20,000 bases of DNA from an uncultured virus (IMG/VR IMGVR_UViG_3300025066_000004) (taxonomy: Duplodnaviria; Heunggongvirae; Uroviricota; Caudoviricetes), in the IMG/VR virus record IMGVR_UViG_3300025066_000004; one strand, given 5' to 3'. The position numbers were made by a program, and so were the translations under genes. This document shows, one piece after another, positions 5,825 through 19,995 of the stretch (position 1 is its first letter; each line of letters begins with the position of its first letter). Below the pieces are notes generated by a model, which was given only the letters and a program-made list of their open reading frames with translations, was not told the origin of the DNA and searched no databases.

Positions 5825-8800
5825 CTACCCTAATGTCACCCAAGAGGTTCCGGTATACCCTTTAAAGTTTGTGCCATCAAATTTAATCATCCCTTTTTGA
5901 GGAGTTCCTGCAAAATCTCCGACAGCAAGGTATGAAGCGGCCCTGACACTAGGCAAAACATTAGGATCTAAAACAGACTTCCACCCATCGGAGAGGTAGT
6001 TAGAAGCAGAATCTAATCCTGCATAAATATGGATTTCCCCATTAAAAACCGCTGCACCATGACCCGTGCGACTCACAATTTCCTGATCATAGGAGTAAGC
6101 TTCTCGCCAAGTTATACCATCCTCAGAAACCCAAACATCATCAAAGGTAGTAGAAGCATTATTCCCCCCAATAACGTACATCTTATTACTGTAGATAGTA
6201 AGAGTGTGGTTAATTCTAGGAGTAAAGGAGGCATTACCCGTTCCACTCCCCGATTCTTGAACCCAAGTAGTGCCGTCTACAGAAGACCACACTTCGTCAG
6301 AATACCCACTCACCCATCCTCCAGTAACCCAAATCTTCCCATTGAACGAAGTAACAGCCGTACCTGTAGACGAAGAAAAGGGGTTGGAGAGACTCTGCTG
6401 AACGAAATTCTGACCAATAGAACCCTTCCAAATCTCTAAAGTACTCCCGTCCATTCCAATTACCCAAAGAACCCCGAGAAAATAAACCACTCGAACACTT
6501 ACTAACCCTGGAGGATTGGTAGAGGTGTTATAGACCCAAGTCTCCCCATCTAGTGTATACCGAAACTTAGTCTCGCCACCTGACGAATAAAAAAGGCATA
6601 CATAATCCCCCGCATTTACAAGCTGGTATCCCCCTGCTGATATAGAAGAAGGGTCTCCGTCTCCTGAAAAAGTCAGCGTTTTTTCCGAGAAAGTCACGCC
6701 ATCAGTCGATGAAAAAACCTGGAATACTTGGTTAGTATCCTGTCCACCAGCAATCCAAACTTCAGGAGGATTAATTGAAGCATAAGTCGTTGCAATTACC
6801 GTTGAATATACCCTAGCGACATACCCTGTTGGATTCAATGCAGTAAAGTTTATCCCGTCAGTAATAGGAGTAGAGGAATCAGTAGTAAAGGACTTCCACT
6901 CCCCTCCAACCCTGCCAGTAAAGTCAGAGCCGTCATAGCGGATATTTCCCGCAGTAGTATCTGCGGTATTTCCAAGTGCAACCCCCGCATTAGCATTAAC
7001 CTTTCCTGTTACCGTTAAAGCTAACCCCACCGTAGCCGAAGTAGTAACTTCCAGGTCTCCAGTTACTTTGACCCCCGCATCCGTAGTACGAAAATGCTCC
7101 GACGCATCCTTATGGTTAATCCTAGACCCGTCCGTACTGCCAAACCGATACCCGATAACGTTATTCCCGCTGAGAACAACTTCATTATTCGTAGAGGTTA
7201 AATAGAGGATTCCCGTAGTATTCTTAACATAGGAATGAGATCCATTGTGACAAAGAAACATATCACTGCTAGTACCAAAGTACTGGTAGACATTATCAGC
7301 GTAGATCTGGTTCGCACCCCAAGTATTACTCGCCGCAAGTTTAGCGTATTGGGAAATTCTAGTTGGGCCAAGAGGATCAATTACTTGAAGAATTCCTCCT
7401 GCTACCTGGAGAATCTTAGTCTCGTATACTGCGATAGGGATCGAAGCTTCTCCATCAATTGTCCCGGTAGATGGGACAAGATTTACCGTACCCGTAATTG
7501 AGACATTTTTTACAATAATTACCTGGCCCTCTTCAAGGTTCGCCACAGTAAAATTTACATTTGTAGTAGCCGCTGCTTTTCCAGCGATAATAGTATGATG
7601 GAGATCCGTGACCGCATACTCTATCGGGTCTCCAACCTCCCCCGTAATATCGGTGACTGCCGTAATTACATGATCCGTCGCAAACTCAAGAGCCGTGGCA
7701 CCCGCATTAACTCGAACCTTTTTAAACTTGCCACTTGTAAAGTTAGCGGGGGTATCGCTCAAACTTACGAAATCCGAACCCCCTCCTCCAGAAGCGTCCT
7801 CCCAAGATGTCGTGCCGTCTCCTGCAGTAGTCAAAACTTGGTCAGCCGTACCATTTCCTGTGGGCATCTTAAAAGAGGTAATGTCGTACAGGCTCCCAGC
7901 TCCGTTTATTTGAAGAATCTTTCCAGCGTTCCCCGCCACAAGTTTTCCAGCGGCGATGTTTCCATCAATAACTCCTTGAGCTCTAGCGGTAGTATGGTAT
8001 TCGTTAGTACCTTCAGTGATATCTGAAGTTGTGGCGCTATGGGGATTCCCTGTGGTACCCCGATGAGTAGTGTTTGCAGACACATTAGCGTTAGCGTTTA
8101 CTCTGGCCTCGGTGTAATAGAGGTTAGTATCCTCAGAAATATTCGCAGTAGTCGTCCCATGAGGATTCGAACCATCACTGATATCAGCATGAGCTTTTGC
8201 CGTAGTCACATCAGAATGTGCAGCGACTCGACCATCGGCCCTGGCGTTAGTAAAGTAGAGGTTGGTAACTTCACTAATTTGAGCAGTAGTAGTTCCATGA
8301 GGGTTACTTGCCGTAAGAGCAGTATGGGCAGAGTTAGCAGCCACGTTACTATTCCCATCAACCCGACCTTCCGTGTAGTACAAATTCGTAACCTCATTTA
8401 TATCCGCAGTAGTGAGAGTTACAGCGGGACCTGTGTCTCCATTGACTGAGGCAACCCCATCATTAGGGCTGTTAACTGGAACCCAACTTCCGTCTACAGA
8501 GTAATCCGGATCAGCCAGGATATAGCTCAAACCTGTGTCAGTTTGAATGGCTAAATCTCCCAATTCTGCTGTGGAGAGAGCGAGTCTTGCCGCCAAATCT
8601 GCAGGAGTAAAAACATCTGTTAAAGCTAACGAGGGCAGATAACTCGAAGGGATTTTATCGCTAACTAAAGGAGCGACTCCGTTTGTTGCCCCCCGATCAA
8701 CCGCATCCATCTTCTGAGTATTAATCTTATTAGCAGACCATAAATCTGTACTCGCAGCACCTGCATCATTAATTGTGCGATGGAGAGTAACATCTCCAGT

Positions 8801-9922
8801 ATGGGTGTCTAGGTTCCCCTGGACCGTACCCGCAGAACCCGCAGCATCGTAAGTGCTATCAATGTCGAAAGCTACTACAGAGTTTCCGTCCCCCGCGATT
8901 TTAAGACCGTAGTCAGCGTTATCTCCGAGAACAACCCCTACATCAGATAACCCTTCGAAAGTAGCTCCAACAAATGTAGTTGCGGTAAGGGCTCCTCTGA
9001 CCTCTAAGGCATAAGTGTTATCTGGGGCCTCCCCCTGATTTCCCCGGAACAAAGCATTCCCGTCCTCATCCATGATAAGGGTAGGTACTCCTGAAACAGG
9101 ATTTTGGAGAATAGATGAGCTGGCATGAAATGGAGTAACCATGCCTTGACCCAAAAAGAAGACCTGCCGGATAGCAGGAAGAGTTTCTTCAAAAAACTCA
9201 AAGGAAGGAGACGTAGCGGTATGCATAAAACCGCCGAGGTATAGCCCCCCCGTTTTTGAAGTACCCTTTAAAACTGAGAATAACTTCCCAAGCTTTCTAG
9301 TCCAAACTATATCGGTTAAAGGAGTATCTGCCTTTGCCGTAGCATCCGCCCAATCCGCAGAGTTAGCAGTTAAAAGGAGTAATTGGCCCCCTGTAACATT
9401 TGTCAAAACTGCAGTCAAAGTATCGACACCAGCTTGGGTGGTTAAGTCGTGAGAAGTCCCGAACCCACCTGCCGTAGGAAGAGCAGTAAACGCTCCAACA
9501 GCACTGACCGTAATATCAAACTGCATTGTAGCGACAATTCCTGCACCCAGAGCATTGCTATACTGGCTGTTACCGAGAATTACATTAACTCCAGTAGCGT
9601 CTGTCTCAACCTTCGCAGTATGAAAAAACGAAGTCCCCGCTAAATTGCCGAAAGGGTTGTCAGACCGTAAGGACTGAGCCGCCACGTTTCCAGTATCTAA
9701 AACCTTTAAAGCTTCGACACCCCCAAGAGTTTTTAGGGTTATGCCGTCAACAGTTTTAGCGAAGATATTACGCACGGAGACATCATTTGGAAAAGAGAGC
9801 GAATCTGCACTATCAAAGATAATACTCCCGGTGGCGGTAAGAGTTCCCGGAATTACTAGAGTACGGAAAGTCTGCTCTACATTCCAGTAGTTATGCTTAT
9901 CAAGCAGAGTGCCTCTGCCCAT
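5825..9922 (-). CDS. Large mosaic fibre protein (1365 aa) with C-terminal Kelch-like beta-propeller
   Basis: AAGGAG RBS; G/T/A/S-rich; fibre motifs VASVNGDTGPAVTL and FVSLSDTPANF; NLYYTE..R/NPHG repeats; Kelch-like blades (FNGKIWVTGG..DEVWSSVDGTTW, NKMYVIGG..DDVWVSEDGITW). Confidence 0.8.
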   Translation of the reverse strand: MGRGTLLDKHNYWNVEQTFRTLVIPGTLTATGSIIFDSADSLSFPNDVSVRNIFAKTVDGITLKTLGGVEALKVLDTGNVAAQSLRSDNPFGNLAGTSFFHTAKVETDATGVNVILGNSQYSNALGAGIVATMQFDITVSAVGAFTALPTAGGFGTSHDLTTQAGVDTLTAVLTNVTGGQLLLLTANSADWADATAKADTPLTDIVWTRKLGKLFSVLKGTSKTGGLYLGGFMHTATSPSFEFFEETLPAIRQVFFLGQGMVTPFHASSSILQNPVSGVPTLIMDEDGNALFRGNQGEAPDNTYALEVRGALTATTFVGATFEGLSDVGVVLGDNADYGLKIAGDGNSVVAFDIDSTYDAAGSAGTVQGNLDTHTGDVTLHRTINDAGAASTDLWSANKINTQKMDAVDRGATNGVAPLVSDKIPSSYLPSLALTDVFTPADLAARLALSTAELGDLAIQTDTGLSYILADPDYSVDGSWVPVNSPNDGVASVNGDTGPAVTLTTADINEVTNLYYTEGRVDGNSNVAANSAHTALTASNPHGTTTAQISEVTNLYFTNARADGRVAAHSDVTTAKAHADISDGSNPHGTTTANISEDTNLYYTEARVNANANVSANTTHRGTTGNPHSATTSDITEGTNEYHTTARAQGVIDGNIAAGKLVAGNAGKILQINGAGSLYDITSFKMPTGNGTADQVLTTAGDGTTSWEDASGGGGSDFVSLSDTPANFTSGKFKKVRVNAGATALEFATDHVITAVTDITGEVGDPIEYAVTDLHHTIIAGKAAATTNVNFTVANLEEGQVIIVKNVSITGTVNLVPSTGTIDGEASIPIAVYETKILQVAGGILQVIDPLGPTRISQYAKLAASNTWGANQIYADNVYQYFGTSSDMFLCHNGSHSYVKNTTGILYLTSTNNEVVLSGNNVIGYRFGSTDGSRINHKDASEHFRTTDAGVKVTGDLEVTTSATVGLALTVTGKVNANAGVALGNTADTTAGNIRYDGSDFTGRVGGEWKSFTTDSSTPITDGINFTALNPTGYVARVYSTVIATTYASINPPEVWIAGGQDTNQVFQVFSSTDGVTFSEKTLTFSGDGDPSSISAGGYQLVNAGDYVCLFYSSGGETKFRYTLDGETWVYNTSTNPPGLVSVRVVYFLGVLWVIGMDGSTLEIWKGSIGQNFVQQSLSNPFSSSTGTAVTSFNGKIWVTGGWVSGYSDEVWSSVDGTTWVQESGSGTGNASFTPRINHTLTIYSNKMYVIGGNNASTTFDDVWVSEDGITWREAYSYDQEIVSRTGHGAAVFNGEIHIYAGLDSASNYLSDGWKSVLDPNVLPSVRAASYLAVGDFAGTPQKGMIKFDGTNFKGYTGTSWVTLG
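7975..8415 (-). repeat. About 3.5 tandem 40-46-aa repeats within the fibre gene
   Basis: TTADINEVTNLYYTEGRV..AH..SNPHG / TTAQISEVTNLYFTNAR..AH..SNPHG / TTANISEDTNLYYTEARV..TH..GNPHS / TTSDITEGTNEYHTTAR; boundaries approximate. Confidence 0.85.
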
Positions 9923-12895: not shown

Positions 12896-15145
12896 TTAGT
12901 CATCGTAACCATCTGAGGGCCTTAGATGGGATGGAGTTACTCCCTCAAACGACGTTGAGTCAAAGATACTGTCATATCGGAGTTGGTCAAGCTGCTCTTG
13001 CGAAATTTTTTGTTTTGTAGTCTTCTCAATCACAAACTCTCCACGCATCATAGGAGAGACTCCCGTTAGTAAACAGTCTACCAGGGAGAGCTCTTGACTT
13101 CGTGCAAAAACTCCGGCTCCAGTTAAATCTCGCTTTACAAAGGGTAGCACCCTCCAGAGATTTTTACAATTTGACGTAATTATAAGAGGCTTTGCCGCAT
13201 CACGAAGCTGTTGCTTTAAAAAGGGCACAGACAAACGATGATCGGGAGGAACAGGGATTACCACATCTCCCGTTTTAGTCATTTCTGTTAAATTTGACTG
13301 AGAAATTGAGTTAAATTCTTCTGACTCTTGTAAATAGTATACATAATCTGAGGAGATATTGAAGTTAGTTTCTAATTCTCTTATAAAACTTTGCACTTCC
13401 GCAACAGAATAAGAGGCACCTTTAAAGGAAGGATGGAGACTTGGGTCAACCCCATAGAGCTCTGCGAAAACAATAGGGGTGTTATGGAAAAAGTTATACC
13501 CAGCGATGGAACTTTCCGAATGTGCTCGAGTCAGCCAGAGCACTGAGAAGGGGTCCCCATTCGCAGGGATATTCACAGCCCGAACAATAGGCCAGTTACA
13601 GGGAGGACGGAAAGAAGGAAAAAAGTTCTTGTTTCCGATATCCTCCCCGAACATTGCATCAGCCATTAAATTCAGTAAAAATCTCAAGAGCTGGGAAAGG
13701 GAATCTACTTGATCGTCATGTTTAGCATTAGGGAATTTTTTCAATTCGTCAATAAAATCTGTAAGCCAGGGAGCGTTTCTAGGAAGCTTAACTCGCCCCG
13801 CCTCAATAAGAGAAGTGACGGACATGGCTCTTGCAAGCTTACTATCCCCCCGAACATGAAACGGTTCAACTGGAAGAATAGTCTGTTTCAAGTCTTCTAC
13901 CAGATCAATTCCAGAGGATTTATATTCAATTACAACCTTGTGAGGACGATGCTCCTTGTACTCATCCAAAATCAACTGTTTTAGATCCGGATAAGTAAAC
14001 TTCCCCCGGGTGAGATCTGTCAGGTAAACATTCAGACCATCAAATACAGCAGTGATCCCCACCGAAGGGTCGGAAGACTCGTTACGAGTCGAACCAGTAT
14101 CCCAAGACTGAACAGAGAATACAACATTAGAAGGAAGATCAGAATCTCCGTAATACGTCCACCACTGCTCTTTGAAGATTTCTCCTTCTTCAATAGAGGG
14201 GCGCTGTTGGTACAAGGCAACAAAGTCTGGTTCATCTACAGCTCTTATCGACAGATATCGGTCTAGGGGAAACTTACGAGGGTAGAGCGGCGCACCTTTT
14301 TTGCGTGAAAAGAACTCTGAGCCAAGTCTTTCTTGGTAGTCAGGGTTGAAAATTTGAAACTTCTCATCCTTCTCAGCGATAGCAGGGAGAGACAAGACCT
14401 CCCAATTCTCGTTAAACCGATCAGAATCTGAATCTGGGGCGAGTGCAGTCTCCATCTCCTTAGCAAGAAGCCTCCCTGCCAAGTCATCTTCGTGCCATCT
14501 TGTCATAATCAAAACTACCGCCGACCTTCTTTCCTCTAAACGGGTGTAAGCTACAGCGGTATACCAGTCCCAAATTCTATCGCGGATAGTCTTACTGTTG
14601 GCCTCAGCCCTGTCTTTCACAGGATCATCAATGATGAAAACGTGGGCCCCTTTTCCTGTCGCAGATCCCCCAACGGAAGTCCCAAAATACTTAGAACGAC
14701 GGGTCCTATTGTTCACCTGGTGATAGACCTCCCAGTCTGTTCTGGCAGATGCATCTTGAGAAAGGGAGGCTTGAGGGAAAACCTCCTTAAATTCGGCACT
14801 TTGGACGTAATTCCGGGCGTCTTTTCCGAAAGATGCTGCCAATTCCGCAGAATACGTGGACGCGATAACCTCTTTTTGGGCATTTCTGCCCAAAAACCAA
14901 GACGGAAACAGCCTAGAACTGAGCTCAGTCTTCCCATGCCGGGGAGGCATGAAGATCATGAGCCGGGGGATATCCCCTCTTTCTGCAGCCTCTAGTCGGT
15001 CTGCAATAAGGTAATGGAAGGGCTCAGGATGGTAAGAATCTAGCATTAAAAGAGCATAATCTATGAGATTACCTCTAGCTTTTACCACTCTAAGCTTCCT
15101 TAAAGTCTCAAGTTTCTGGGCAATTTCTAAGGAATCATCTGGCAT
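12896..15145 (-). CDS. terL: Terminase large subunit with about 255-aa C-terminal extension
   Basis: Walker A MPPRHGKT, Walker B FIIDDPVKD, MTRWHEDDLAGRLL, and nuclease motifs QSWDTG / IEYKSSG / HDDQVDSLSQ. Confidence 0.95.
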   Translation of the reverse strand: MPDDSLEIAQKLETLRKLRVVKARGNLIDYALLMLDSYHPEPFHYLIADRLEAAERGDIPRLMIFMPPRHGKTELSSRLFPSWFLGRNAQKEVIASTYSAELAASFGKDARNYVQSAEFKEVFPQASLSQDASARTDWEVYHQVNNRTRRSKYFGTSVGGSATGKGAHVFIIDDPVKDRAEANSKTIRDRIWDWYTAVAYTRLEERRSAVVLIMTRWHEDDLAGRLLAKEMETALAPDSDSDRFNENWEVLSLPAIAEKDEKFQIFNPDYQERLGSEFFSRKKGAPLYPRKFPLDRYLSIRAVDEPDFVALYQQRPSIEEGEIFKEQWWTYYGDSDLPSNVVFSVQSWDTGSTRNESSDPSVGITAVFDGLNVYLTDLTRGKFTYPDLKQLILDEYKEHRPHKVVIEYKSSGIDLVEDLKQTILPVEPFHVRGDSKLARAMSVTSLIEAGRVKLPRNAPWLTDFIDELKKFPNAKHDDQVDSLSQLLRFLLNLMADAMFGEDIGNKNFFPSFRPPCNWPIVRAVNIPANGDPFSVLWLTRAHSESSIAGYNFFHNTPIVFAELYGVDPSLHPSFKGASYSVAEVQSFIRELETNFNISSDYVYYLQESEEFNSISQSNLTEMTKTGDVVIPVPPDHRLSVPFLKQQLRDAAKPLIITSNCKNLWRVLPFVKRDLTGAGVFARSQELSLVDCLLTGVSPMMRGEFVIEKTTKQKISQEQLDQLRYDSIFDSTSFEGVTPSHLRPSDGYDD

Positions 15146-15178
15146 TATTCTCTAATTTTAAAGGTTTTTTAGAATTTG

Positions 15179-15385
15179 TTAATAGATTTTGAAGAATCTG
15201 AGATCCTCTATCCCAGAGCACGATTCTTCTACATCGAAGGTATATTCTCCAGATAATAGGTCATGAGAGAACGAGTCAAAATGGTCCCGATTACGGAAAT
15301 TCAGGTACTCATATACGAATTTCGGGGGCCCTTGAGCCTCGTATACCTTGGTAAAGGTCATGAGATAACACCTAGGATCATGCAA
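15179..15385 (-). CDS. Hypothetical protein (68 aa), first gene of the terL operon
   Basis: GAGGAGG about 6 nt upstream of a TTG start. Confidence 0.55.
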   Translation of the reverse strand: MHDPRCYLMTFTKVYEAQGPPKFVYEYLNFRNRDHFDSFSHDLLSGEYTFDVEESCSGIEDLRFFKIY

Positions 15386-15522
15386 AATACGCCTCCTCAG
15401 AACCCTATTCTACACTATCCGGTACTAGAACCTCCATTCTGGGCAATAAGCTCTCAGAGTCCTTCCTACGGCAAATGGGTGGGTGTTATACCCCGTGGCA
15501 GGTATGTGGGATGCTGGAAATT

Positions 15523-15630
15523 CAAGGTATCCGTAGATAGTCAGTAGAACTGGCCTTTCGGGACGAAGCCTCCTCCGGAGGTGCCCAGAGGGCATCCCGA
15601 AGGGCCCAGTCTACTTGCTAGATACCCTTG
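15523..15630. repeat. Imperfect long inverted repeat with two internal hairpins (T/Y-shaped)
   Basis: AGTAGAACTGGCCTTTCGGGA (15543-63) pairs with TCCCGAAGGGCCCAGTCTACT (15595-615); outer CAAGGTATC/GATACCCTTG; inner CCTCC-TCC-GGAGG and TGCCC-AGA-GGGCA. Confidence 0.8.
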
Positions 15631-15745
15631 GGTAGTGGGTAGGTTCATACTATATAAGAGCCCTCCAAACTCCCTACCCCTGTAACCCGCTCCCAGAGCG
15701 GTTCTCCAAGATCCGGTAGTTTTTGGTAGTTCCACCCTCCCTACC

Positions 15746-15775
15746 TTGACCACATACCCTCAAAAATGCTATCAT
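15746..15775 (+). promoter_or_regulatory. Sigma70-type promoter for the helicase operon
   Basis: TTGACC, 18-bp spacer, TATCAT with extended -10 TGn; the predicted start near 15782 coincides with the start of a long stem. Confidence 0.7.
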
Positions 15776-15782
15776 ATTCATA

Positions 15783-15908
15783 TGACCGAAAACTCACTGC
15801 CACTAAAAATGTAACCCGGTTCTGAGAGGCTTCCTCTCCAGCGAGCAGATTTAGTGTTTTCGGTCAATCTCACTTTACGTTCTTGTGAGGTTTCTCAGAA
15901 CCTGGGTT
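15783..15908 (+). ncRNA. Structured leader resembling P4 CI / P1 C4 antisense RNA plus downstream target
   Basis: Stems TGACCGAAAA/TTTTCGGTCA and CACTAAA/TTTAGTG with an 8-nt bulge; bulge and loop are complementary to 15885-15908. Confidence 0.55.
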
Positions 15909-15929
15909 TTTAACAAAGGATTGACCTCC

Positions 15930-17246
15930 ATGGAAATTGACCAAAATCTCGCCCAAAACATCGACTCCGCAGTCGAAGAATTAGACCGAATTTTCACCCA
16001 TTTTTACCTTCCCGACTTACCCTTAGAAGAGTTCAGGACCCGGCTTGAGCCATGCCTTGATGAACTGCACACTTTTGCCAAATCTGCAGGGCTAACCCTA
16101 GATGAAGAAATCAAGCTATACTATACCTCTCAGCCAGACTCCGACATTAAAGAAGGTGTAGTGCTCCCCACATTCAATTTCGCAGAATTCTTAACCTACG
16201 AACCCGCTCCTGAGAAATTCCTCATAGAAGGAATCCTCCCAGAAAACACTCCAGCCGTCTTGTACGGAACAGGGGGTGTCGGAAAATCGTACTTAACCAT
16301 CCAGCAAGCCGTTGCCTTGGCAACCGGACTCCCTTACTTAGACCGCTTCGAGGTCAAAGAAAAAAGGCAAGTCTTAATCATTGCCCAAGAAGACTCCAAA
16401 AACCAAATCCATTTACGAATCAAAAGAATCCTCGAGCATCTGTGTGAAATCCACGATCTCAATCCAAAAGACTTGGCTGAAGATCTTAAGAACATCGTTG
16501 CCGTGGACTTCTCTCAACTCAGAAAAGACCATCGCAAGATGAAAAGGAATCTCACTGACCCTTCAGAGGAGTTTTTCAACTCAATCAAGCAAACGGTTAA
16601 CAGTTTAGGAAACGTGGGTCTCATAATCGCAGACCCTCTAAACAAACTTTATGGTTCTGACATGAACGCCAATGACTTAGCAACAGACTTCATGCTCCGC
16701 ATTGAAGATCTCTGTGAAACTCTAAACGTCACTGTTGAAATCATCCATCACAAAAACAAAACTTCAGATTCTGTAAAATTCCGTTCTTACGGAGCAGGAG
16801 GCTCAATGGGAGCCGCTTCTTTCATTAACGGCGCTCGTCATGCAATCGAGGTAGACAAAGCCAACAAGCAAAACGACAAAATTCCTTCTGAAGATAGGGG
16901 TAACACCTTCCTTCACAACATTTCCAAATCCAATTACATGGCAGATGGAGATGAAAGAATTTTTTACATGAGAAAAAACACTAATGGAGTCCTCTATTAC
17001 TTTGATATCGAAAAACTCCGCATTGAAAGGGAGAAAAACCAAGAACGCCTCCAACTTGAGCGTCAAGAAGACCTGGCTCTCAAATGTAGAACTGCTCTAG
17101 ACCGAGGTCCTTTGAGAAAAATGGCTTTTTACGAAGCAATTGGTTATGAGAAATCAACCGGGGCTAAAAAACTCAAAGAAGCCTTAGCTTCTAACATCGT
17201 CGCTCTCGACGATAAAGGTCAGGTGGCTTTAAGTGCGCAAAACTGA
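15930..17246 (+). CDS. AAA_25 / RSF1010 RepA-like (SF4-type) helicase
   Basis: Walker A GTGGVGKS, QEDS, Walker B IIADPL, IIHHKNK and GAASFINGAR. ATG 15930 has an AAAGGA RBS; an in-frame GTG at 15885 is an alternative start. Confidence 0.85.
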   Translation: MEIDQNLAQNIDSAVEELDRIFTHFYLPDLPLEEFRTRLEPCLDELHTFAKSAGLTLDEEIKLYYTSQPDSDIKEGVVLPTFNFAEFLTYEPAPEKFLIEGILPENTPAVLYGTGGVGKSYLTIQQAVALATGLPYLDRFEVKEKRQVLIIAQEDSKNQIHLRIKRILEHLCEIHDLNPKDLAEDLKNIVAVDFSQLRKDHRKMKRNLTDPSEEFFNSIKQTVNSLGNVGLIIADPLNKLYGSDMNANDLATDFMLRIEDLCETLNVTVEIIHHKNKTSDSVKFRSYGAGGSMGAASFINGARHAIEVDKANKQNDKIPSEDRGNTFLHNISKSNYMADGDERIFYMRKNTNGVLYYFDIEKLRIEREKNQERLQLERQEDLALKCRTALDRGPLRKMAFYEAIGYEKSTGAKKLKEALASNIVALDDKGQVALSAQN

Positions 17247-17403
17247 TGGCAAGGATTTTACTGACCGGGAAATTATCTCCAAACTTTGTACTCGAGTTCT
17301 CGAACTCCAGGACCGCTTAAACAAGCTCGAAGGAAACTGTCGCTCAGACCAAATATCTAAAGCAATCGCTAATGATCCTCGACATAGCTATAAACTAAAA
17401 TAA
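17233..17403 (+). CDS. Small hypothetical protein (56 aa)
   Basis: Read by eye: GTG start with AGGTGG upstream, MRKTDGKDFTDREIISKLCTRVLELQDRLNKLEGNCRSDQISKAIANDPRHSYKLK; fills the gap between helicase and terminator. Confidence 0.5.
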   Translation: MRKTDGKDFTDREIISKLCTRVLELQDRLNKLEGNCRSDQISKAIANDPRHSYKLK

Positions 17404-17421
17404 TTTATAATTTTTTTCTTT

Positions 17422-17454
17422 TCCCCTCTTCTTCGGAAGGGGGGATTTTTTTTT
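17422..17454 (+). terminator. Intrinsic terminator of the helicase operon
   Basis: TCCCCTCTTC-TTCG-GAAGGGGGGA followed by T9. Confidence 0.9.
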
Positions 17455-17498
17455 ACCCAAAACCTAAATTTTCAAAAAATTAATTAGCGAGGTATGGG

Positions 17499-17522
17499 TT
17501 CACTCCGCTTCCGCTCCGTAAA
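17499..17522 (-). promoter_or_regulatory. GGA-zipper hairpin motif, copy 1
   Basis: Minus strand TTTAC-GGA-GC-GGAA-GC-GGA-GTGAA. Confidence 0.45.
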
Positions 17523-17571
17523 GAGAGGCCCCCTCATTTCGGGGGCCACCCCCCCTACCGGGGAGTTTGTT

Positions 17572-17596
17572 ACACACTCCGCTTCACTCCATGTGT
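17572..17596 (-). promoter_or_regulatory. GGA-zipper hairpin motif, copy 2 (candidate template-strand promoter)
   Basis: Minus strand ACACAT-GGA-GT-GAA-GC-GGA-GTGTGT, 63 nt before ATG 17660. Confidence 0.55.
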
Positions 17597-17659
17597 CTAT
17601 TGATTATGAAGTTTCTCTCACGGTGAGAGGAACAAGAGTGCTGATTGCTAGGAGGTCGC

Positions 17660-17848
17660 ATGAACTGCGAACTGTGTAGCAAAGCCGCTTACCAGGACAC
17701 AGGGCTATGCCCTGAATGTCTCTGGGATGAGGAGTCAAAGGCTATCTTCCTTCAGATGATGAAGGAGATAGCTGAGGACACAAGGGCAGAGACCCTTGTG
17801 GACCTTGACTCCTGCCCTGCGGAACAAGACGACGAGCATTGTCTATAA
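17660..17848 (+). CDS. Small Zn-finger-like protein (62 aa)
   Basis: GGAGG RBS; CELC and CPEC motifs; acidic tail. Confidence 0.7.
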   Translation: MNCELCSKAAYQDTGLCPECLWDEESKAIFLQMMKEIAEDTRAETLVDLDSCPAEQDDEHCL

Positions 17849-17894
17849 AAACTGCTCAAAAGGTGCCGTGTCCCACCTATGGTAAACGTGACAC
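17827..17894 (+). ncRNA. Tandem double H-type pseudoknot module, copy 1
   Basis: [AGACGA]C[GAGCA][TTGTCT]ATAAAAAC[TGCTC] then [AGGTG]CC[GTGTC]C[CACCT]ATGGTAAACGT[GACAC]. Confidence 0.65.
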
Positions 17895-17916
17895 TTTGAT
17901 TCAAAGGGGAAGCATC

Positions 17917-18213
17917 ATGCCGTGGTATGAATGCAAGAGCTTTGATAACTGCAAACAGTTAATAGACGAGGCATACGAGTACTTACTCTGTCCTCAATGT
18001 CTAGAGGCTGAAAGCAAGGAGAGCATCATTAACCCTAAGGATGCTATCCACATATTTTGCAGTTGGTGTGGACTGGAACTGTCTTCACTGGAGTGCCCAG
18101 CCTGTGACAAGGAAACAGGTATGGAAACTTACGCTTGTAGAGAGTGTGAGGAACAAACTCCAATAGAAGACGGGCCAGTCTGCGAAGACTGCCAGCAGGA
18201 CTGTTACATCTAG
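17917..18213 (+). CDS. Multi-CxxC zinc-ribbon protein (98 aa)
   Basis: Start moved to ATG 17917 (AAGGGG RBS); CPQC, CSWC, CPAC, CREC and CEDC motifs. Confidence 0.75.
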   Translation: MPWYECKSFDNCKQLIDEAYEYLLCPQCLEAESKESIINPKDAIHIFCSWCGLELSSLECPACDKETGMETYACRECEEQTPIEDGPVCEDCQQDCYI

Positions 18214-18340
18214 GAAAGGTGTGACAGATCTTCAATTCCTTTTCAAAGGGACGCTGCATAGACAGTAAGGCCATGACAGGCCAGTCCCCTCTGTGGATCG
18301 TGACAGATCCCATGTCCCGGGCCGAGGGTTAAGTCGGCAC

Positions 18341-18414
18341 AGACCTGAGCACGTCTTTAAACTGCTCAATCTTTATAAAAAGGAGACGTTACCCTCCGAA
18401 GGTAAAAGCGTAAC
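18341..18414 (+). ncRNA. Tandem double H-type pseudoknot module, copy 2
   Basis: [AGAC]C[TGAGCA]C[GTCT]TTAAAC[TGCTCA] then [GGAG]AC[GTTAC]C[CTCC]GAAGGTAAAAGC[GTAAC]. Confidence 0.65.
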
Positions 18415-18433
18415 ACTCAGAGAAAGGAAGACC

Positions 18434-18667
18434 ATGAACGATTACGTTCATCGTTGCTTCTGTGAGTTTTGTGGTAAAAGCGTGCACTACCCTCAAATAG
18501 GGGAAGAGTCCGTGGAGAAGGCCCATTACTTCTGTTATTGGAATCGCGTCGACTGGGACTACCAGAATGACGCGAGGACGGCAGATGATGATGCCATCTT
18601 CGACCACTGCACCGGGGAGAAAACCGTTACTTTAAACGGCAAGATCCCCGGTTCTTGCAGAAAATAG
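18434..18667 (+). CDS. Small Cys/His-containing protein (77 aa)
   Basis: Start moved to ATG 18434 (AAAGGA RBS); CEFC and HYFC motifs. Confidence 0.7.
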   Translation: MNDYVHRCFCEFCGKSVHYPQIGEESVEKAHYFCYWNRVDWDYQNDARTADDDAIFDHCTGEKTVTLNGKIPGSCRK

Positions 18668-18809
18668 TCGGGACAAAATTTTGATCCCGTTGTGCCTCAA
18701 CGAATGGCACGAGGTAAACTACTCGCCAAAAGCAGTAGCGTCACCTCAAATTCTCCTGACCGGAGCCATACTCGCCACAGTAAGAGTTAAGCTGTGATAA
18801 ATCTGTAAG

Positions 18810-18844
18810 GAGCCTGGACCCTTCGGGGTCTGGGCTCTTTTTTT
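18810..18844 (+). terminator. Intrinsic terminator
   Basis: GAGCCTGGACCC-TTCG-GGGTCTGGGCTC followed by T7. Confidence 0.92.
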
Positions 18845-18874
18845 ATGTGAGTTCCCACTCTGGGGAGTGGGAGG

Positions 18875-18893
18875 TAACCCACCCTCCTGGCCC
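18875..18893 (+). repeat. 19-bp direct repeat, copy 1
   Basis: TAACCCACCCTCCTGGCCC, identical to 19349-19367. Confidence 0.9.
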
Positions 18894-18950
18894 CTGCCAA
18901 GCTCCCTACCAAAGATCGACCCACTCGCTATTTTTATTCTTTTTCTTTAT

Positions 18951-18975
18951 ACACATTCCATTTCATTCCATGTGT
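18951..18975 (-). promoter_or_regulatory. GGA-zipper hairpin motif, copy 3 (candidate template-strand promoter)
   Basis: Minus strand ACACAT-GGA-AT-GAA-AT-GGA-ATGTGT, 43 nt before ATG 19019. Confidence 0.55.
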
Positions 18976-19018
18976 CTAATAATGTTGTGATTATTTACAA
19001 CTTTAAGGAGGTTGTATT

Positions 19019-19267
19019 ATGGCTATTGCCAATAAGAAAGAAATCATAGATTCCATCGTAGTTAATGAGACCCCAAAAGGGGTCTTCATGAATTTACGAC
19101 AATCGACCACAAACTCTACTCTTGAAGGAGTAGATTTTGTGACAAATTCGACAGGGTATCGCCTGTCGGATTCCCTTTCAGAAGAGGATTACCCTCTCCT
19201 GAAAGAGAAGATTGCGGAAGCAATCGTCCGTGAGCAGATTGCACTGCTCACAGCGTCATTGGCCTAA
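19019..19267 (+). CDS. Hypothetical protein (82 aa), monocistronic cassette
   Basis: TAAGGAGGT RBS; has its own upstream motif and downstream terminator. Confidence 0.85.
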   Translation: MAIANKKEIIDSIVVNETPKGVFMNLRQSTTNSTLEGVDFVTNSTGYRLSDSLSEEDYPLLKEKIAEAIVREQIALLTASLA

Positions 19268-19276
19268 TCGGCCACC

Positions 19277-19313
19277 AGGTCCTCAGCCCCTCAGGGGGCT
19301 GGGACCTTTTTTT
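19277..19313 (+). terminator. Intrinsic terminator
   Basis: AGGTCC(T)CAGCCCC-TCAG-GGGGCTGGGACCT followed by a T run. Confidence 0.88.
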
Positions 19314-19348
19314 ATGCAATTTACCACTGTTGGTTTTTTTAATACTTT

Positions 19349-19367
19349 TAACCCACCCTCCTGGCCC
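19349..19367 (+). repeat. 19-bp direct repeat, copy 2
   Basis: TAACCCACCCTCCTGGCCC. Confidence 0.9.
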
Positions 19368-19369
19368 GC

Positions 19370-19426
19370 ATCAATAGATCAAAGAATCAAAGAATCAAAG
19401 AATCAAAGAACCACCCAAGTCAAAGA
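19370..19426 (+). repeat. Tandem 8-mer array (ATCAAAGA)x4 with degenerate flanking copies
   Basis: Perfect copies at 19378-19409; ATCAATAG at 19370 and GTCAAAGA at 19419. Confidence 0.9.
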
Positions 19427-19428
19427 AA

Positions 19429-19995
19429 CTAAGGCTCAACCAACATTCCACTACGCTTCAATTCCTTTTCATACTTAGCTATCAACTCTTCATCACTCAT
19501 GCTATCGTTATCAGTGACCTTAACATGGATAGTAGAGTCAGCGTACAATTGCATTAGCTTAGACAGCTCTTTCAATGCATCCATTTTATTATGCATCTTA
19601 ACTCTCACAGATTTGTGTCCACCAGCCGCTCTAGTCATGCTCACTTCGCTAATTGCATCTGCTATCGAAGCATCTATTTCTTCAGACGCTTTCAATGAAA
19701 CAGTGTCACCTTCCCACTTAGTTACATCTTTAATATTTGCCGTTGCAATACGCACTAGTTGAGAAATTACAGTTTCAGGAGTTAGCGATGTCATCACCAT
19801 TACTTCCTTCATCCTAGTCATAATTGCACGAGCAACAGGTTCCTTAGTTAACATCTGATTAACGTAAGTTTTGAACGAACTTTCATTCTCATTTTGATAC
19901 CCAGCAAGTCTAGCCGCTTCTTCAGCTCGTCCCTCAGTTGCTATAAAAAACTCAACAAATAACGACTGCCTAAACGTTAATCCATTTGGTAACAA
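19429..19995 (-). CDS. terS: Terminase small subunit (Terminase_2-like); true start may lie beyond the window
   Basis: LTFRQSLFVEFF..AEEAARLAGY helix-turn-helix, VISQLVRIATANIKD and VRVKMHNKMDALKELSK; the frame is open to the window edge. Confidence 0.9.
   Translation of the reverse strand: MLPNGLTFRQSLFVEFFIATEGRAEEAARLAGYQNENESSFKTYVNQMLTKEPVARAIMTRMKEVMVMTSLTPETVISQLVRIATANIKDVTKWEGDTVSLKASEEIDASIADAISEVSMTRAAGGHKSVRVKMHNKMDALKELSKLMQLYADSTIHVKVTDNDSMSDEELIAKYEKELKRSGMLVEP

Follow-up and report, generated by a model that had tools for sequence, protein, structure and literature searches.

The question raised by this locus is what two closely packed RNA pseudoknots are doing in front of small genes of an uncultured tailed phage (IMG/VR record IMGVR_UViG_3300025066_000004). 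The window, by which we mean the whole stretch of 20,000 nucleotides (nt) that was analysed, contains a small operon of three cysteine-rich genes with start codons at 17660, 17917 and 18434, and the two internal gaps of this operon are occupied by diverged copies of a two-knot arrangement, in which a pseudoknot called PK-A is followed by a pseudoknot called PK-B. A first-pass annotation, made from the letters alone, had taken this arrangement for a single portable leader of the downstream gene. The explanation that we favour, at slightly less than even confidence, is that two different cis-acting RNA elements happen to abut here, with PK-A serving as intergenic punctuation and PK-B as a tuner of translation initiation. 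PK-A has a defined fold and a regular placement, it is present in multiple copies per genome and it is spread across phage types and host phyla. It probably marks and protects the ends of messenger RNAs (mRNAs), although the mechanism is inferred. PK-B, judged from its position and from a stem that pairs Shine-Dalgarno-like with anti-Shine-Dalgarno-like sequence, probably tunes translation initiation. The elements are located as follows.

17827..17859, plus strand: PK-A copy 1, a divergent H-type pseudoknot (match to covariance model R1)
17861..17894, plus strand: PK-B copy 1 (direct reading; compensatory changes relative to copy 2)
18341..18369, plus strand: PK-A copy 2, the canonical form (match to covariance model R1)
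18382..18414, plus strand: PK-B copy 2 (direct reading; compensatory changes relative to copy 1)

Both diverged copies, with the PK-A and PK-B pairings that had been described for them, can be read directly in the sequence. In PK-A copy 1, the first stem (S1) is formed by AGAC (17827-17830) and GTCT (17841-17844) and the second stem (S2) by GAGCA (17834-17838) and TGCTC (17853-17857). In PK-A copy 2, S1 consists of AGAC (18341-18344) and GTCT (18353-18356), the first loop (L1) is the C at 18345, S2 pairs TGAGCA (18346-18351) with TGCTCA (18363-18368) and the third loop (L3) reads TTAAAC. S1 reads as 4 base pairs (bp; AGAC/GTCT) in both copies, and the previously assigned difference of 6 bp versus 4 bp was not reproduced. 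Two properties of PK-A copy 1 were absent from the first-pass annotation: its loop has 10 nt, compared with 8 nt in the rest of the family, and the TAA (17846-17848) of the upstream open reading frame (ORF) of 62 amino acids falls within L3. PK-B copy 1 pairs AGGTG (17861-17865) with CACCT (17874-17878) in S1 and GTGTC (17868-17872) with GACAC (17890-17894) in S2, and its L1 is CC. The corresponding strands of PK-B copy 2 are GGAG (18382-18385) and CTCC (18394-18397) in S1 and GTTAC (18388-18392) and GTAAC (18410-18414) in S2, with AC as L1. Both PK-B copies have a single C as second loop (L2) and GGTAAA in L3.

The covariance model R1 contains the pairing of S1 only, leaves S2 unpaired and was built solely from PK-A copies of other phages. 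On the 20-kb window it scored copy 2 with 46.9 bits (E = 1.3e-13) and copy 1 with 18.5 bits (E = 2e-4), and the counterpart of copy 1 in a relative of this phage, which is described below, reached 21.5 bits. A third PK-A/PK-B copy was found in the 20-kb window neither by the R1 scan nor by sequence search. Members of the PK-A family consist of a hairpin NNNC-CUGAGCAN-GNNN, an A-rich linker and the sequence UGCUC, which pairs with the loop; the window copies conform to this definition, copy 1 with its 10-nt loop.

When IMG/VR was searched with the pattern GAGCA N1-2 GTCT N2-4 AAACTGCTCAA, we obtained 66 loci, which represent 49 distinct contexts with unrelated flanks. In one of these 49 contexts S1 has no 5' strand, and we regard it as a probable random match within a coding region. 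A pattern in which S1 was freed (CTGAGCA N7-9 AAACTGCTCAA) gave at least 130 loci. The PK-A collection used here comprises 233 unique copies, most of which were gathered with patterns that fix the sequence of S2. Within the family, S1 varies freely and yet remains complementary (AATC/GATT, ATCC/GGAT, TCTC/GAGA, GGTC/GACC, CCAC/GTGG). Its inner variable pairs 6-19 and 7-18 are formed in 147 and 145 of 148 distinct sequences, each with six standard pair types, and the S1 covariation score of these 148 sequences was not reached by any of 500 shuffles.

Since the collecting patterns had fixed the S2 sequence, we built R1 on S1 alone, and the weaker matches of this model carry compensated S2 variants (UAAGCA/UGCUU, UUAGCA/UGCUA, UGGGCA/UGCCC, UGAACA/UGUUC, UGAGUA/UACUC). 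Among 103 sequences S2 is 95.1% paired, and four of its six pairs have changes on both sides. These double changes are G-C to A-U (six times) and G-C to U-A (twice); A-U to G-C (twice); G-C to A-U (once); and U-A to C-G (once). At the two central pairs the changes are matched in three of three cases, and pair 14-31 is U-G 18 times as against one unpaired case. The outermost U-A pair is frequently lost (unpaired in 22 of the 103). Because both stems covary, we conclude that PK-A is an H-type pseudoknot, with an S1 of 4-5 bp, a 1-nt L1 (C), an S2 of 5-6 bp, a 1-nt L2 and an L3 that ends in AAAC. All matches lay on one strand in 19 of 20 fetched regions (100 matches), and this co-orientation with the genes, together with the tolerance of G-U pairs on the sense strand, argues that PK-A is selected as RNA and not as DNA. 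Thus, the selection on RNA structure that had been postulated from two copies is borne out by the covariation of both PK-A stems across more than 100 sequences and by the compensatory differences of PK-B.

The placement of PK-A follows the upstream gene. In the collection of 233 copies, the distance between the stop codon of the preceding long ORF and the knot is 5 nt in 53 cases and 6 nt in 32, with a median of 10 nt. In 179 copies the preceding stop is 0-30 nt away (TAA in 134, TAG in 31 and TGA in 14 of these). Those longer spacers that were inspected contain an additional small hairpin. With a spacer of 5-6 nt the base of the knot presumably stands at the mRNA entrance of the ribosome during stop decoding, which from ribosome footprints we take to be the closest that a knot can stand without having to be unwound during termination. 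The next plausible start codon lies farther away and at a more variable distance (median 58 nt, interquartile range 30-134); for 25 copies there is none within reach. The sequence 3' of PK-A varies as well: some copies are followed directly by a ribosome-binding site, others by a GC hairpin, by non-coding sequence rich in TTATCCACA or by a transfer RNA (tRNA) gene. The nearness to the upstream stop, the variable distance to the start and the fact that a tRNA gene or non-coding sequence may follow suggest that PK-A is an intergenic element tied to the upstream gene, and its earlier classification as a leader of the downstream gene is not supported.

A tRNA gene follows within 40 nt 3' of PK-A in 17 of the 233 copies, and in 16 of the 233 it begins at 4-9 nt. 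The adjoining genes encode tRNA-Asp in 14 cases, all from one related clade, and tRNA-Val, tRNA-Leu and tRNA-Gln at separate loci. No tRNA was found just 5' of PK-A in any of the 233 copies. In the tRNA-Asp clade, which consists of uncultured phages (L232-L251; for instance L232, 3489-3599), PK-A stands between a DUF932 gene and the tRNA-Asp, which begins 4-9 nt after the knot and has no encoded CCA. One well-sampled clade has accessory genes (DUF932, GP88 and small unknown genes), and not capsid genes, next to PK-A, and related phages contain arrays in which genes and PK-A copies alternate. As separate observations, ARAGORN called a putative gene resembling transfer-messenger RNA between two PK-A copies (L033, 1736-2152) on a viral contig with direct terminal repeats, and several PK-A copies with an AATC/GATT stem (L166, L186, L148, L176 and others) are followed by stretches with repeated TTATCCACA-like words. 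These words resemble DnaA boxes, which suggests that a candidate replication origin adjoins the PK-A copies concerned.

PK-A has a wide distribution. In a whole-record scan with R1, all 50 of 50 viral records contained PK-A, with one to eight copies each that cluster within a few kb. It is also present in isolates, namely in cyanophage S-RIM4 (Kyanoviridae; one copy), Synechococcus phage S-EIVl (seven matches) and Paracoccus phage ParMal1 (Autographiviridae; one copy), and in one annotated region of each of them it lies between annotated genes. A scan of prokaryotic genomes, one per species, returned at least 118 loci, many of which are chance matches within genes. Among the first 100 of these loci, 28 reached at least 35 bits with R1, and according to the contig labels these 28 extend across about ten phyla; the labels include Bacteroidota, Patescibacteria, Bacillota (with Ligilactobacillus salitolerans), Actinomycetota (Nocardia nova), Chloroflexota, Planctomycetota, Cloacimonadota, Omnitrophota, Ignavibacteria and Hyphomicrobiales. 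PK-A is not contained in Rfam 15, and we did not find it described in the literature, although it may be listed in the supplements of Weinberg 2017 or PMC10690425; six smaller supplement files of PMC10690425 gave no match. The portability that had been claimed for the arrangement is confirmed for both knots, since PK-A occurs in hundreds of unrelated phages and PK-B copies flank an extra gene in the relative.

PK-B behaves differently, and its distribution contradicts the idea of one module. A PK-B-like element 3' of PK-A was detected in 2 of 165 PK-A contexts, both of which come from the phage's own IMG/VR record. In IMG/VR, PK-B patterns matched only this record and one position within a coding region. 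In metagenomes they matched one relative phage (two overlapping loci), the contig of which is 88-97% identical to the window; three further metagenome matches are GC-rich and coding, and we took them as chance. A blastn search of positions 17400-19000 against GenBank phages gave no match, the nearest virus record (G001, 10.8 kb) does not span the region of the knots, and protein-guided searches with the genes of 98 and 77 amino acids recovered only the same phage. PK-B is private to this phage lineage.

The relative carries PK-A and PK-B before the 98-amino-acid gene, as in the window. There, PK-A and a slightly different PK-B also precede an extra gene of 103 amino acids, which the window lacks, and a third PK-B, which is preceded by an unrelated hairpin and not by PK-A, stands before the 77-amino-acid gene. 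The extra gene (L270, 340-651, minus strand) is flanked by two PK-B copies and has no Pfam match. The arrangement of the window is that of the relative minus one cassette bordered by PK-B copies. Because the third PK-B of the relative occurs without PK-A, we conclude that PK-B travels with the downstream ribosome-binding site and that PK-A is a separate element.

For the five PK-B copies of window and relative, four of which are distinct, an ungapped MAFFT alignment was prepared. All 36 of 36 cells pair, and three of nine pairs are changed on both sides, which was equalled in 8 of 500 shuffles. The stems of the two sequence types differ at three pairs (one in S1, two in S2), all of them compensatory, and the statement that PK-B changes its sequence and keeps its pairing was therefore correct for these two lineages. 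The probability that a 5-bp match between loop and tail alone arises by chance is 0.056 for copy 1 and 0.124 for copy 2. S1 of PK-B pairs the Shine-Dalgarno-like AGGUG/AAGGAG with the anti-Shine-Dalgarno-like CACCU/CUCC, and the purine-rich ribosome-binding site proper is located 8-12 nt 3' of PK-B.

Next to these data stands the comparison with known systems. At gathering thresholds no Rfam 15 family was found in the window, and permissive scans returned only a sub-threshold alignment with GP20-b and terminator look-alikes. The accessible part of PMC10690425, which refers to Weinberg et al. (2017), treats GP20-b (RF03003) as a candidate for cis regulation; there, GP20-a and GP20-b are both placed upstream of phage GP20 genes, the function of which is unknown. 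Copy 2, taken as PK-A plus PK-B, aligns with model positions 1-62 of 62; the score is 15.2 bits (with E values of 0.38 for 121 nt and 5 for 1.6 kb of sequence), as compared with a gathering score of 36.2. In this alignment PK-A falls on hairpin 1 and the UAAA linker of GP20-b, and PK-B on the GGNG/CNCC hairpin and the conserved tail AAAAGCGUA. Copy 1 did not match GP20-b; it has GGUG/CACC and GGUAAACGU and yet escapes the model. True GP20-b members (L067-L069, found with a consensus pattern) scored 47.8-48.5 bits and have the same layout before a GP20-like gene.

The likeness between GP20-b and the window arrangement lies in the order of the parts: a short 5' strand that pairs within the hairpin 1 loop comes first, then an A-rich linker and a GGNG/CNCC hairpin with an 8-nt loop, followed by an A run, a GCGUA tail and then the ribosome-binding site. 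However, the downstream genes of the window, the double zinc ribbon of 98 amino acids and the 77-amino-acid gene, match no GP20 family, R1 misses the true GP20-b loci, and the GP20-b model is silent on seven loci that hold PK-A alone. Moreover, the loop and S2 of PK-A are nearly invariant and PK-A stands behind stop codons, whereas the GP20-b member examined follows a terminator-like hairpin. Since 15.2 bits is below the threshold of 36.2, we regard GP20-b as a resemblance and not as the family of this element; it is the closest known relative in architecture and possibly in descent. The Rfam scan proposed in the first-pass annotation therefore gave no strong match to an existing family, and its statement that no named family fits holds at threshold, with the qualification that copy 2 aligns over the full length of GP20-b.

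Other compact RNAs share parts of this design. The aptamers preQ1-I and SAM-II and the pistol ribozyme have in common with the knots the H-type topology and an A-rich L3, which had suggested a likeness. In targeted scans, however, their Rfam models matched neither copy at E values up to 10, and pistol has extra helices that PK-A lacks. Recoding pseudoknots (luteovirus -1 frameshifting, retroviral readthrough) are compact H-type folds with a 1-nt L1 and an A-rich L3, located 5-8 nt past the codon at the decoding site. PK-A shares with them the fold, the 1-nt L1, the A-rich L3 and a similar spacing after the stop, but it has neither a slippery site nor an extended frame and occurs in many copies per genome. 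Promoter-plus-stem-loop cassettes reportedly flank small mobile genes in T4-type phages, as Arbiol and colleagues are said to have described in 2010. They are similar in that short conserved regulatory sequences border small accessory genes and are linked to gene gain and loss; in contrast, those cassettes consist of promoters and simple stem-loops acting as DNA homology, whereas here two interleaved stems covary as RNA. Among viral RNAs, the available portion of PMC6299227 describes xrRNA-D of plant viruses as two stacked helices, P1 and P2, with conserved internal loops L1 and L2B, the function of which depends on a pseudoknot and which defines RNA ends. Measured against that portion, PK-A resembles xrRNA-D as a small viral RNA between genes with an apical loop-to-downstream pseudoknot, conserved loop bases and covarying stems. 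Against the same description, PK-A differs in having just one stem, which is 4-5 bp long and carries an 8-nt loop, no counterpart of P1/P2 or L1/L2B and no Rfam match.

On these grounds the favoured explanation can be put in mechanistic terms. PK-A lies on the sense strand of intergenic gaps, as near to the preceding stop as a terminating ribosome permits, and would act by its compact and persistent fold as a mark between genes by which an RNA end is fixed and shielded. Once the RNA is cut in the gap, PK-A would remain with the upstream gene as its structured 3' end. Where a tRNA gene begins 4-9 nt after PK-A, the cut by RNase P would leave an upstream message that ends in the knot and a very short tail. 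PK-A might also stall exonucleases approaching the downstream message, and a nuclease block, which the first-pass annotation had named among the possible functions, is a live possibility. PK-B, which resembles the 3' half of GP20-b, would tune initiation from its place between PK-A and the ribosome-binding site of small zinc-ribbon genes, and as a repeat it also delimits a gene cassette that the relative has and the window lacks. We prefer a simple mark between genes because PK-A works in very different hosts, because no shared phage protein was found among the carriers, where no test aimed at co-occurring proteins was made, and because the knot is anchored to the gene end.

Several observations weigh against this explanation. 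The window's own PK-A copies are atypical for the stop-codon rule, since copy 2 lies 128 nt past the nearest long ORF, the 98-amino-acid gene, and copy 1 overlaps the coding end of the 62-amino-acid ORF including its stop. The loop and S2 of PK-A are nearly invariant across phyla, which a plain stability element would not need and which therefore hints at a specific partner or chemistry; a mimic of tRNA processing and a protein operator are the principal competitors on this point. Many PK-A copies are followed by a terminator-like hairpin of their own, and a 3' protector is redundant there. The true variability of PK-A is undersampled because most copies were gathered with patterns that fix S2. 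The covariation evidence for PK-B is good but thin because it comes from two lineages only, and the nested minimum-energy folds calculated with ViennaRNA (about -17.6 kcal/mol per copy), which cannot represent pseudoknots and are therefore not informative on this point, choose other pairings.

A bolder version of the punctuation idea, which we consider somewhat unlikely, holds that PK-A is a universal viral punctuation knot, a new and minimal RNA class that works by its fold alone in hosts from bacteria of the candidate phyla radiation to cyanobacteria. Such a knot would define mRNA ends between genes, either because exoribonucleases stall at it or through tRNA-like mimicry towards RNase P or RNase Z, and GP20-b would be a specialised offshoot of this fold. 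The opposite simplification, in which the entire two-knot module is one leader of the downstream gene acting as translation enhancer or as ligand or protein sensor, appears unlikely to us. It is true that both window modules end 19-22 nt before the ATG, in agreement with the distance of about 20 nt noted earlier, that in S-EIVl, S-RIM4 and ParMal1 PK-A stands about 25-35 nt before the next start behind a C/A-rich spacer with no obvious Shine-Dalgarno sequence, and that the invariant unpaired bases (C in L1, AAAC in L3) look like a binding pocket. However, the position of PK-A tracks the upstream stop and not the start, PK-A also precedes tRNA genes and TTATCCACA-rich non-coding stretches, up to eight copies per genome stand before unrelated genes, PK-B is found without PK-A in the relative, and the Rfam scans gave no match to a riboswitch family. 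Alternatively, PK-A might imitate part of a tRNA and recruit RNase P or RNase Z, which are present in all cells, to cut polycistronic phage RNA. We rate this as quite unlikely, although the spread over very different hosts, the 16 copies at 4-9 nt from a tRNA gene in four independent tRNA contexts and an S2 tail that reads loosely A-(A/C)-C-(A/U) are consistent with it, and RNase P accepts the pseudoknotted, tRNA-like ends of plant viruses as substrates. On the other hand, the stacked helix of PK-A amounts to no more than about 10-11 bp and a T-loop is missing, ARAGORN called no tRNA or transfer-messenger RNA gene in the window and no tRNA-like gene at either copy, and the ACCA tail, which follows S2 in 8 of 103 sequences, is not conserved.

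The covarying stem and the invariant loop, as in protein-recognised hairpins, and the many copies in accessory-gene regions, as expected of a regulon, would fit an operator or cleavage site of a protein, be it a phage RNA-binding repressor, an endoribonuclease or a conserved host factor. We judge this improbable: among the carriers are a T4-like myovirus and a podovirus of the Autographiviridae, along with unrelated uncultured phages of many host phyla, and this diversity makes a shared phage protein unlikely. Still more doubtful is the proposal that the repeats matter mainly as DNA, as recombination sites that shuffle gene cassettes, with the RNA fold being incidental. The relative indeed differs from the window by one gene between two PK-B copies, PK-A copies border small accessory genes in arrays, and near-identical sequences of 30 nt stand amid otherwise unrelated flanks. 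However, the covariation of two interleaved stems and the tolerance of G-U on one strand only led us to reject a purely DNA-level repeat as the principal explanation, and the co-orientation with genes in 19 of 20 regions speaks against it as well; recombination may be a side effect of the repeats. Finally, PK-A could stimulate readthrough or frameshifting at the preceding stop, and the spacer of 5-6 nt matches that of known recoding pseudoknots. We give this idea hardly any credence and rejected it, as there are no extended frames: readthrough would add few codons (mostly 0, 1 or 7 in the 179 copies), TAA occurs in most L3 linkers, each of the three stop codons is represented, and the next feature may be a tRNA gene. 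An anticodon-arm mimic and a new self-cleaving ribozyme were also considered for PK-A, and the analyses run speak neither for nor against them. A nut-like site for transcription antitermination, made of a hairpin and a single-stranded box, was discarded since the covariation of S2 puts the "box" in pairing with the loop. To our knowledge, cyanobacteria, which are among the PK-A hosts, lack Rho.

A nearly invariant RNA of about 30 nt, which occurs in several copies per genome and mostly close behind a stop codon in phages of about ten bacterial phyla, points to a general principle, not described so far, by which polycistronic phage messages are organised. Should PK-A be a nuclease block or a processing signal, it would be the bacterial-virus counterpart of the exonuclease-resistant RNAs of eukaryotic viruses and would offer a very small, host-independent insulator for synthetic operons. 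PK-A also provides the orphan Rfam motif GP20-b with a far larger set of possible relatives, and its presence in the isolates S-EIVl, S-RIM4 and ParMal1 opens the question to bench work.

The surroundings of the knots are those of a tailed phage. The minus strand of the window has genes for a major head protein and a portal or adaptor protein, for a long tail protein with Kelch repeats and for both terminase subunits, and between the small and large terminase genes lies a plus-strand block (12896-19995) with helicase-like and small zinc-ribbon genes. The features of this block around the knots are listed below.

15885-17246, plus strand: AAA_25 helicase-like gene, in the plus-strand block
17422..17445, plus strand: terminator-like hairpin with T run, which ends the preceding helicase unit (sequence scan)
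17660..17848, plus strand: cysteine-rich ORF of 62 amino acids, the last codons and TAA stop (17846-17848) of which overlap PK-A copy 1
17903..17912, plus strand: purine-rich ribosome-binding stretch AAAGGGGAAG, which precedes the ATG at 17917 (read from the sequence)
17917..18213, plus strand: double zinc-ribbon gene of 98 amino acids (Pfam DZR)
18422..18430, plus strand: purine-rich ribosome-binding stretch GAAAGGAAG, which precedes the ATG at 18434 (read from the sequence)
18434..18667, plus strand: cysteine-rich gene of 77 amino acids, kept in the relative phage
18807..18840, plus strand: terminator-like hairpin with T run, which ends the small-gene operon (sequence scan)

The 98-amino-acid gene matched Pfam DZR with E = 5.2e-6 and 27.0 bits, at a cut-off of 27.3, whereas neither the 62-amino-acid ORF nor the 77-amino-acid gene had a match in Pfam or PHROG. 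The gap before PK-A copy 2 (18214-18340, 128 nt) contains a direct repeat GTGACAGATC at 18220-18229 and 18299-18308 and a 6-codon ORF that ends 8 nt 5' of the knot, and this gap is conserved in the relative.

Some further observations concern the window at large. A replication/accessory module between two terminase genes (12896-19995) is an unusual location. A box of 34 nt with inverted ACACA/TGTGT ends is present at 17571-17604 and 18950-18983 in copies that are 82% identical; one copy lies about 55 nt 5' of the gene that opens the small-gene operon, the other 5' of an 82-amino-acid gene at 19019, and the box may be a common promoter or operator. At 18819-18893 and 19288-19367, a terminator-like hairpin is followed by related sequence ending in the exact 19-nt repeat TAACCCACCCTCCTGGCCC, which looks like a terminator-plus-signal cassette in two copies. 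About five tandem copies of the 8-nt unit TCAAAGAA are located at 19371-19444, at and just past the 3' end of the small-terminase gene on the opposite strand, and might be iterons or a feature of the packaging site. In the tail region, a library scan placed the Kelch repeats of the 1365-amino-acid protein (5825-9922) near its C-terminus.

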